Below are positions 56,710-57,813 of a stretch of DNA of 64,000 bases, in pieces; the first letter of the stretch is position 1, and each line of letters starts with the position of its first letter. Origin of the DNA: a virus. Its lineage: Duplodnaviria > Heunggongvirae > Uroviricota > Caudoviricetes. The notes below the pieces were generated by a model, which ran no database searches, was not told the origin of the DNA, and saw nothing but the letters and a program-made list of their open reading frames with translations. The position numbers were made by a program, and so were the translations under genes. The DNA lies in the IMG/VR virus record IMGVR_UViG_3300045988_137643, positions 1-64,000 of that record; one strand, 5' to 3'.

Positions 56710-57813
56710 ATGAAAAATAGCTTTGACAGAGCACGCGCTGCGGAGAACACCTCAAAAGAGGCGATTGAGTATCTCGAAAGAGCATCTCAAATGCAGGCCG
56801 TTATGATCTCGCAGGTTAGCATTGATATGAGATTCTCGGACGCATTCATGTTATTCACTCGCTTATCTCTGCTGATAACCAGACGTCGGCCAGAGATCGC
56901 TGTTCATTGTATTTTGATACATGTTTTGCCGCACATTGCCGATGTAAAAGTAAGTGACATTAATAGGTTCATGGTGAACCAACTGGTCAACCCACTAATA
57001 CTGGATGGCAAAATTGTTATGGGCCGCCGCGTTTTCTCTCTGATGAAGCAGTTCCTTAGCTGGTGCGCCTTCCAGGGGATGATAGACGTGTCACCGTTAA
57101 ACGATATGTCACTAAACAAAGTTGCCGGTGGCGCAAAGCCCACACCTCGCGAGCGGAAGCTGACCGACGCAGAGGTATGGGTGTTCTGGAATATATGGGA
57201 CTACTTCAATGTGTGCGCTGGTACAAAATGGGCGGCCAGGCTGTGTCTTGTATCAGCAAGACGACCTGACGAAGTACTGCGGGCTAAAAAAAGTGAGTTC
57301 AATCTTAAGCGTGGGGTTTGGAATCAAGGCAAGAGAAACAAGTCAGCACGTGAGCATTCGCTGCCTTTAAGCACATTAATGCGCACATGCATTGAAGAGT
57401 TGTTCGAATACGGTAAAGACAGCCAGTGGCTCGTGCCTTCGAATAAAAAAATCGGGAAAGACCTTCCTATGTCTAAAGTGGCAATAGCCCAGGCATTACG
57501 TCGTATTCTGGAACGACCAGAACTGATGGAGCTTGAGCCATTTACACCCCGAGATTTGCGCCGTACTGCGCGTAGTTACTTCCCAGCATTAGGCATAAGC
57601 CAGGAGGTATCACGCAAAATCATGAACCACAGTCTTGAGGGGATAGATCGGGTCTACGACCGGCACGATTATATGGACGAGATGCGAGACGCCTTAGAAA
57701 GTTTCTCGACGTACATCGCATCAATCGTAGAGCAACCGGATTTAGACGAAATTGACCACAAATTCAAGGGAGATCGTCTATCAACAGAGCTTATTCGTGT
57801 AAATTTTTCATAG
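56710..57813 (+). CDS. int: tyrosine recombinase (integrase-family); N-terminal region divergent
   Basis: C-terminal catalytic motifs: box I Arg, PRDLRRT (HxxR position reads RxxR), MNHSL, RVYDRHDY with tyrosine nucleophile. Confidence 0.65.
   Translation: MKNSFDRARAAENTSKEAIEYLERASQMQAVMISQVSIDMRFSDAFMLFTRLSLLITRRRPEIAVHCILIHVLPHIADVKVSDINRFMVNQLVNPLILDGKIVMGRRVFSLMKQFLSWCAFQGMIDVSPLNDMSLNKVAGGAKPTPRERKLTDAEVWVFWNIWDYFNVCAGTKWAARLCLVSARRPDEVLRAKKSEFNLKRGVWNQGKRNKSAREHSLPLSTLMRTCIEELFEYGKDSQWLVPSNKKIGKDLPMSKVAIAQALRRILERPELMELEPFTPRDLRRTARSYFPALGISQEVSRKIMNHSLEGIDRVYDRHDYMDEMRDALESFSTYIASIVEQPDLDEIDHKFKGDRLSTELIRVNFS

Follow-up and report, generated by a model that had tools for sequence, protein, structure and literature searches.

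An arm-less tyrosine recombinase with arginine at the His II position and a candidate lox-like site in an SSU5-type phage-plasmid

The stretch of 64,000 nucleotides analyzed here (positions 1 to 64,000 of IMG/VR record IMGVR_UViG_3300045988_137643, Caudoviricetes; hereafter, the window) belongs to a phage-plasmid of the SSU5/pHCM2 type, an element of about 110 kb, and it carries a gene of the tyrosine recombinase superfamily together with a palindrome a short distance upstream. A preliminary description made from the sequence alone had recognized an integrase-family open reading frame (ORF) at 56710-57813 whose HxxR position reads RxxR, and had offered two explanations, a multimer-resolution recombinase or a decaying integrase. 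The gene, its predicted catalytic residues and the elements in front of it are as follows.

56710..57813, plus strand: arm-less tyrosine recombinase of 367 amino acids, ATG start
57262-57264: Arg185, predicted catalytic
57340-57342: Lys211, predicted catalytic
57550-57552: Arg281 (codon CGA), predicted catalytic, in place of His II
57559-57561: Arg284, predicted catalytic
57628-57630: His307, predicted catalytic
57655-57657: Tyr316, predicted catalytic
56579..56611, 33 bp: candidate recombination site AATGATTCCATAC-CTACTAT-GTATGGAATCATT, 98 bp upstream of the recombinase start
56561..56569, plus strand: semi-conserved A-tract TTCAAAAAA, 10-18 bp left of the site
56636..56664, plus strand: possible recombinase promoter TTGATC-17 nt-TAATAT, read by eye, 8/12 to consensus

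The recombinase and its arginine at the His II position

All the motifs quoted for the ORF in the preliminary description were present, namely box I SARRPDE (with Arg185), PRDLRRT at residues 280-286, MNHSL at 305-309 and RVYDRHDY at 314-321, and the catalytic domain was recognized by Pfam (PF00589, residues 172-320, E 5.4e-10, 39.7 bits against a cut-off of 27.1). A match to the core-binding domain PF22022 at residues 71-133 fell below the Pfam cut-off, and the arm-binding domain PF13356 gave no match at E <= 0.01, in agreement with the earlier remark that the N-terminus is unlike an arm-binding domain. The comment on a poor ribosome-binding site was likewise correct, the only Shine-Dalgarno-like element being GGTGA, 7 nt before the ATG; the start is real, because the N-terminal sequence MKN(S/T)FD(R/K)ARAAENTS is kept in diverged relatives.

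An AlphaFold2 model calculated on the family alignment (predicted local distance difference test 89; predicted template modeling score 0.81) placed N-terminal helices at residues 1-35 (short helices 7-33), a core-binding domain at about 42-141 and a catalytic domain at about 153-340, and the modeled fold is the standard two-domain clamp without an arm domain. The best solved structures returned by Foldseek were the core-binding and catalytic domains of lambda Int on core DNA, followed by Tn1549 Int, XerH, XerA and IntI; the superfamily matches listed had probability 1.00, and Cre was matched more weakly. A phmmer search of the single recombinase sequence against the PDB gave no match, and the family profile was required for that comparison. 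Alignment to P4- and lambda-type integrases, proposed as a check in the preliminary description, identified the P4 type as nearest and gave a profile match to lambda Int at E 4.7e-12. This alignment starts at lambda residue 45, past the greater part of the lambda arm-binding domain, and pairs Arg281 with His308 and Arg284 with Arg311, so that the position indeed reads RxxR and not HxxR. Lys211 was assigned from a column of the P4-type alignment (K in 126/144), and its equivalence to lambda Lys235 is uncertain. The protein is a member of the tyrosine recombinase superfamily in which one canonical residue, His II, has given way to Arg281; this is no bar to membership because His II is the least conserved of the catalytic set. 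Across tyrosine recombinases, this position was reported to be His in 87%, Tyr in 6.8% and Gln in ~1% (Gibb et al. 2010, PMC2943603).

Among 5.8 billion proteins, 153 homologs were found. Those with 44-99% identity have no arm domain and lie on phage-plasmid-sized contigs of many Enterobacterales, and matches at <=34% identity are P4-type integrases carrying PF13356 (outgroups P0114-P0120). Position 281 is Arg in 110 of the 121 aligned rows and His in 6, all of them P4-type proteins with PF13356, the remainder being fragments. Arg185, Lys211, Arg281, Arg284 and Tyr316 do not vary among 66 full-length members (43-90% identity), and >=90% of these have His307; members are 340-380 amino acids long, vs ~400 in the outgroups. 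The preliminary description had named failure of the His to be conserved in active relatives as grounds for setting its observation aside; Arg does occupy the position across the whole family, although the activity of its members is itself predicted from sequence. The proposal of a decaying integrase was contradicted on several counts: hundreds of plasmids carry an intact copy of the gene; its catalytic residues are kept in diverged relatives in which synonymous sites are saturated (synonymous divergence, pS, 0.66-0.84 vs nonsynonymous divergence, pN, 0.09-0.42); the ratio of nonsynonymous to synonymous rates (dN/dS) is 0.04 and 0.07 in the two computable pairs (~0.05); and Arg281 is retained through synonymous codon changes, its codon varying among CGA, CGT and CGC.

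The outgroup was then defined by an exhaustive hidden Markov model search of 1.84 billion cluster representatives. Two full-length clusters of the family were recovered at E ~1e-165, with two short entries lower that are apparently family fragments; the next match had E 6.5e-57 and was followed mostly by proteins of ~400 amino acids in which the match starts near residue 100. At His II, 148 outgroup representatives have His 143 times, Lys once and Arg once, and that sole Arg belongs to a 104-amino-acid fragment of the family itself. At the residue preceding Arg I, Gln predominates in the outgroups, and the family has an invariant Arg184. The nearest relatives, at 25-34% identity, are the P4-type integrases (P4 Int and CP4-57 IntA; Arm-DNA-bind_3/DUF4102 + Phage_int_M + Phage_integrase), which share with the recombinase the core-binding and catalytic domains and the DLRRT, NH and VYDRHDY motifs; they are ~400 amino acids long with an arm domain, HxxR and Gln before Arg I, whereas the recombinase is arm-less with RxxR and Arg184. 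On these alignments, the family differs from the P4-type outgroup by three changes: loss of the arm, replacement of His II by Arg, and Arg184 in place of Gln. By descent, the recombinase is an offshoot of the P4-type integrases.

The palindrome, its flanks and the lone half-sites

The palindrome at 56579..56611 consists of perfect 13-bp inverted repeats around a 7-bp spacer, an arrangement for which 0 occurrences are expected by chance. The same layout was found 17-100 bp upstream of the gene in all relatives examined, always with a 7-bp spacer. The arms, ATGATTCCATAC, are invariant for recombinases of 55-100% identity, and the spacer is lineage-specific (CTACTAT, CTATTAA, TTGGTAG, TTGTAAG, TTATATA, TATGTAA, CTATAAA, TTAATAG and others), some spacers being reverse complements of others. 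In a clade at 39-53% identity, made up of Xenorhabdus, Providencia, Pantoea and Rahnella sequences and IMG/VR contigs, the arms are TGACTCCAGAC, with two identical substitutions in both arms. For the first site type, the gene lies 44-100 bp to the right in 97 of 100 IMG/VR loci, and the site is single and intact in all 100; the exceptions are one locus cut at its end and two with a group II intron between site and gene. For the second type, the gene is present at 7/8 loci. Gene and site also occur together as a lone pair on a 508-kb replicon of Pantoea vagans and a 723-kb replicon of Rahnella victoriana (L008, L012), amid ordinary metabolic and transport genes and without a helix-turn-helix (HTH) gene as neighbor or any phage genes. 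Since the pair occurs on these megaplasmids without the HTH gene, the palindrome belongs with the recombinase rather than with that repressor-like gene. Judged from this pattern of conservation, the arms behave like a protein-binding site.

Two of these loci deserve separate mention. In L075, from a Klebsiella-type element, the group II intron (Rfam RF02005, 182.7 bits; 13247-13472) is inserted ~85 bp right of the site, where it separates the putative promoter from the start of the recombinase, and the Klebsiella-type element L091 from IMG/VR has a near-identical insertion at the corresponding position. On the 73-kb IMG/VR contig L127, positions 5269-5301 hold a second-type palindrome, TGTGACTCCAGAC-CTCGTGA-GTCTGGAGTCACA; the 10.9-kb locus contains no recombinase homolog, and the palindrome may represent a site served by a recombinase in trans, or a remnant.

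The A-tract carries positional information of 1.0-1.4 bits over 83 unique contexts and may be a bending or accessory element. On the other side, a block TGCCTAATATACTGT, possibly the promoter region, is conserved in Klebsiella relatives; the promoter-like TTGATC/TAATAT pair lies below the threshold of a sigma-70 consensus scan, which did not report it, and its assignment is therefore inferred by eye. The palindrome lies ~25 bp upstream of the putative -35 hexamer and does not cover it. It has no Rfam match and no T-run on either strand, and the terminator scan was silent; a reading as a terminator or RNA element was rejected on these grounds.

We compared the flanks of the 83 unique first-type contexts, oriented by the gene (tblastn), over 120 nt on each side. 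The left flanks fall into 43 families vs 17 for the right flanks, and one right family pairs with up to 9 left families. In 62 of the 93 independent comparisons with the same right and a different left flank, the break in homology was 0 nt away from the left arm's outer edge; the converse, a break at the outer edge of the right arm, was found in at least one case. Many left flanks with no other relationship to one another have the A-tract at a constant distance from the site, and it looks as if each of these flanks arrived with its own copy of the site. As read from the sequences, the clustered breaks fit natural crossover at the site, in which co-resident sites would recombine and the cointegrate would be resolved elsewhere by homologous recombination. 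In two large cointegrate plasmids (218 kb and 198 kb), the locus is intact and has the usual backbone neighbors, and no junction falls at the site.

Three further copies in the window consist of one arm extended by ATC, (A)ATGATTCCATACATC.

52781..52796, plus strand: lone half-site AATGATTCCATATATC, one mismatch, over the start codon of a 50-amino-acid ORF (52782..52934)
53793..53808, plus strand: lone half-site AATGATTCCATACATC, equal to one arm + ATC, intergenic, ~200 bp upstream of tRNA-Asn
62627..62642, minus strand: lone half-site inside the 5' part of the phage dnaE

Each of the three is oriented toward the full site (-> -> [-> <-] <-), and the 11-mer core has 4 occurrences in the window vs 0.05 expected. 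The half-sites are syntenic in phage Cyrano, in Klebsiella pJN2-26 and in L005, a relative at 60% identity, and both positions checked in a Citrobacter plasmid are also conserved. The copy at 52781..52796 is exact in Cyrano and pJN2-26; that at 53793..53808 stands out in four lineages as 15 invariant nt amid variable intergenic sequence; and that in dnaE fixes, across five lineages, the codons TGT ATG GAA TCA TT(A/G), with an unrelated peptide and no half-site at this position in the clade of the second site type. The complete 108-kb Cyrano genome contains the three lone sites and the full site only, all within 9.2 kb. Within 10 kb, no lone half-sites were found in the TGACTCCAGAC clade or around the megaplasmid copies. 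A partner arm 6-8 bp from each lone half-site was sought, with degenerate versions allowed, and no conserved one was detected. The ATC extension is common to all lone half-sites and occurs in none of the full-site spacers seen. The idea of a shared MIPYI peptide translated from the half-sites was dropped, as a Shine-Dalgarno element is present at only one of them and the dnaE copy would be an ORF of 6 codons. The same protein probably binds the lone half-sites in addition to the full site, in which case they would be comparable to TnpI's accessory motifs.

Candidate function and rival explanations

We favor, with moderate confidence, an active simple-site recombinase that acts on the 33-bp palindrome as the SSU5-group counterpart of Cre/loxP, resolving multimers and perhaps circularizing infecting genomes. 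A P4-type ancestor would have lost its arm-binding domain and fixed Arg184 and Arg281. Two monomers would bind the 13-bp arms, two sites would synapse, and strand exchange, with predicted cleavage positions and with Arg serving at His II, would proceed across the 7-bp spacer via Tyr316. As the prophage is only a low-copy plasmid, the main job proposed for the enzyme is the conversion of multimers to monomers so that partition works; circularization of incoming phage DNA may be a second job, and site-specific crossover between co-resident related elements, shuffling the cargo left of the site, would be a by-product. Multimer resolution, one of the two roles offered in the preliminary description, is retained as the best fit to the arm-less architecture, the co-varying lox-like site, the plasmid-only location and the replicons with a lone gene and site, although the role itself is predicted. 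The location was surveyed in complete E. coli genomes, in which the locus occurs in 252 of 5,426 (~4.6%); all 254 places were plasmid-borne and 0 chromosomal. A 1.7-kb region of the locus was matched in 515 PLSDB plasmids, ParA and RepA are present in close relatives, and the copy number of Cyrano was reported as 5.5 per cell (PMC9928086). The carrier is thus a low-copy, partition-equipped plasmid with a cis site adjoining the gene. A scan of genome contigs with the single protein gave four close relatives and one unrelated integrase.

Several known systems resemble this arrangement in part. Cre of P1 is a single two-domain enzyme that is encoded by a plasmid prophage and acts on 13-bp inverted repeats with a short asymmetric spacer, and the recombinase has the corresponding simple-site architecture (two domains, ~13-bp repeats, a spacer within 6-8 bp). 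Cre also helps circularize infecting P1 DNA, and loxP stands out as a hot spot of recombination on the genetic map of P1 and in P1 crosses, behavior that the crossover signature at the palindrome resembles. Resolution of P1 multimers by Cre/loxP is documented (PMC7969092). The two systems differ in that Cre has His289, Trp315 and an 8-bp loxP spacer and the recombinase has Arg281, His307 and a 7-bp spacer; the proteins are not close in sequence, Cre being matched by Foldseek at E 0.02-0.07 and absent from the PDB list of the family profile, which contains lambda Int and Xer. The closest solved structure, lambda Int (1z1b/5j0n, E ~7e-7, template modeling score 0.54-0.62), has an overlap region of 7 bp; it differs by its arm-binding domain (1-64), its use of IHF and Xis, a 240-bp attP and His308, the recombinase aligning only from lambda residue 45. 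P4-type integrases use a complex attP and insert into tRNA or tmRNA genes, whereas chromosomal integration with attL/attR was seen for none of the 254 E. coli copies. In XerH/difH and XerS/difSL, a single recombinase acts on a ~30-bp palindromic site, as proposed here; the site adjoins the gene, the enzyme resolves replicon dimers, and XerH was among the fold matches. These systems are chromosomal and FtsK-dependent, keep His at His II and are only distantly similar in sequence. In TnpI/IRS (Tn4430, Tn5401), ResD/rfsF (F) and Rsd/crs (pSDL2), the recombinase gene adjoins the site at which cointegrates or multimers are resolved, and TnpI also binds extra copies of its motif outside the core, a precedent for additional recombinase-binding motifs. 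Accessory motifs of TnpI, ResD and Rsd are located within ~100 bp of the core or at transposon ends, unlike the lone half-sites described here, which lie 2.8-6 kb from the full site.

A number of points weigh against this assignment. The three conserved lone half-sites fit nowhere in a plain Cre/loxP-type model; to our knowledge, P1 has no dispersed half-sites. Part of the break pattern at the site edge could stem from selection against insertions damaging to a functional element, and, with one full site per genome, the sequences cannot reveal a product of excision or inversion. The literature, queried with the site sequence and for an SSU5, pHCM2 or pMT1 integrase, contained no description of the recombinase or its site. 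Finally, activity with Arg281 is not to be assumed, because Arg was among only five substitutions of Cre His289 that abolished recombination in vivo (Gibb et al. 2010, PMC2943603).

It is unlikely, in our estimate, that the family forms a distinct R-K-R-R-H-Y branch in which Arg281 together with Arg184 re-wires the active site and the lone half-sites, with their span of 9-12 kb, are working parts; within such a reading, they would act as monomer regulatory sites, as a directionality or synapsis device, or as site-specific nicking sites, an architecture that no described simple-site recombinase has. In poxvirus TopIB, a Lys is found three residues before Arg II (PMC2943603). A catalytically inactive derivative that is now a sequence-specific DNA-binding protein, bound as a dimer to the palindrome and as a monomer to the lone half-sites, would agree with the inactivation of Cre by Arg at His II, and arm-identical half-sites at three syntenic positions, including a start codon and the region upstream of the tRNA array, suit a binding protein better. 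We nonetheless consider such loss of catalysis distinctly unlikely: with synonymous sites saturated, the invariance of Arg I, Lys, Arg II and Tyr316 and the near-invariance of His III are hard to account for if catalysis has gone, the clade at 39-53% identity and the megaplasmid copies keep the full site while lacking half-sites nearby, and the homology breaks suggest real crossover.

The flank data have been weighed in another direction as well. If circular modules with a compatible site were inserted at the palindrome in an integron-like manner, leaving the half-sites as old insertion scars, the far more diverse left flanks, the breaks at the site edge, the equidistant A-tract in unrelated left flanks and the orientation of the two left-hand half-sites as left arms would all be accommodated. 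This form of cargo capture appears quite improbable, since two full sites around a module occur in no genome, the ATC extension is missing from the full-site spacers seen, one half-site lies inside the core gene dnaE, and one site-specific plus one homologous crossover between related phage-plasmids explains the pattern more simply. Integration proper, with the palindrome as a simple attP for a chromosomal or plasmid attB in some hosts, has in its favor the P4-type integrases as nearest relatives, the label 'site-specific integrase' given by annotation pipelines and the ability of simple-site recombinases to integrate; a homolog of 86% identity is also located on an 897-kb contig, the places returned for that homolog, among which this contig did not figure, being plasmid-sized with the usual neighbors. 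We judge a true integrase very unlikely in view of the absence of chromosomal E. coli copies, the lack of an arm-binding domain and of an excisionase-like neighbor, and the single intact site in 100/100 IMG/VR loci, the two cointegrates not being joined there either. Highly improbable is a palindrome unrelated to the recombinase, whether as operator of the HTH repressor, RNA hairpin or terminator. It does occupy a regulatory intergenic location beside a putative repressor gene, and its RNA folds to -18 kcal/mol (z = -4.3); however, the site stays with the recombinase where the HTH gene is absent, its arms are conserved in sequence and not by free covariation, it lies upstream of the putative promoter and not over it, and the terminator and Rfam searches mentioned above were negative.

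Tyrosine recombinases have been listed among the persistent genes of the SSU5 supergroup, and phage-plasmids are described as typically without integrases (PMC7969092, PMC12977533). Assignment of the family as Cre/loxP-like would explain why a strongly selected recombinase is present in the SSU5 supergroup and would name its probable cis site. Literature searches aimed at natural His II-to-Arg variants likewise gave no account of this system, and a naturally conserved Arg at a position where it is lethal to Cre provides a test case for re-wired tyrosine recombinase active sites. The 33-bp site together with a single protein of the lambda/P4 lineage could yield a recombinase orthogonal to Cre, Dre and Flp, for which the lineage-specific spacers would be ready-made incompatible site variants. 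The site also marks a boundary of cargo reshuffling, which involves tRNAs, morons and toxin-antitoxin genes and bears on the spread of accessory genes. A site-specific recombinase on a plasmid prophage is in itself unsurprising; the interest of this one is that it is common and uncharacterized, and that it combines a Cre-killing substitution with a candidate site and odd half-sites.

Neighboring genes and variable cargo

The recombinase gene is surrounded by a phage tRNA array, a glutaredoxin gene, a convergent HTH gene, CobT/CobS-like genes and the phage dnaE, and the 1.7-kb region of the locus is 96-99% identical to phages Cyrano, PhiR41_1 and CMS-2020a and ~74% identical to Klebsiella phages. 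The neighbors discussed below are located as follows.

54000-55001: phage tRNA array of four genes (Asn, Tyr, Thr, Ser), 1.6-2.6 kb upstream
55181-56077, minus strand: 298-amino-acid ORF, between tRNA-Ser and the glutaredoxin gene
57808..58194, minus strand: convergent HTH gene of 128 amino acids, overlapping the recombinase stop by 6 bp (57808-57813)
15269-15823 of the Cyrano locus (L004): moron CYRAN_43, directly left of the site; the window has no equivalent gene there

The preliminary description had looked to host att sites matching the 3' ends of the four tRNAs. This idea found no support: the tRNA genes are phage-borne cargo, and the candidate site is the palindrome. Cyrano has three tRNA genes (Asn, Thr, Ser), and pJN2-26 and a Citrobacter plasmid have one (Asn); these numbers differ from that of the window, and tRNA content thus varies among close relatives. 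The HTH gene is annotated as 'putative repressor' in phage Cyrano. Because it stands beside the recombinase in the phage-plasmids and not in the megaplasmid copies, it is probably outside the recombination module; as the 3' ends of the two genes overlap, transcription of one may interfere with the other.

The region left of the palindrome holds other variable genes. The sole match of the 298-amino-acid ORF was PHROG 35492 (function unknown; E 2.4e-106), with no Pfam or PADLOC match, and its absence from this place in Cyrano and pJN2-26 marks it as accessory cargo of the variable region. The Cyrano moron left of the site was reported to be the most highly expressed moron of the prophage, 723-fold above background (PMC9928086).

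Among the relatives, dnaE is divided into two ORFs (785 and 389 amino acids) in L005. In a Xenorhabdus phage-plasmid (L006, 14481-16802), the CobS-like AAA_5 protein has 773 amino acids, about twice the usual length, and contains a LAGLIDADG_3 domain, which suggests an intein. The cointegrate phage-plasmid of 218 kb (L128, E. coli NZ_CP139126.1) has acquired Tn3-family transposons and a gene for an ABC-type ATPase, the insertions lying in the variable region flanked by the tRNA array and the glutaredoxin gene.

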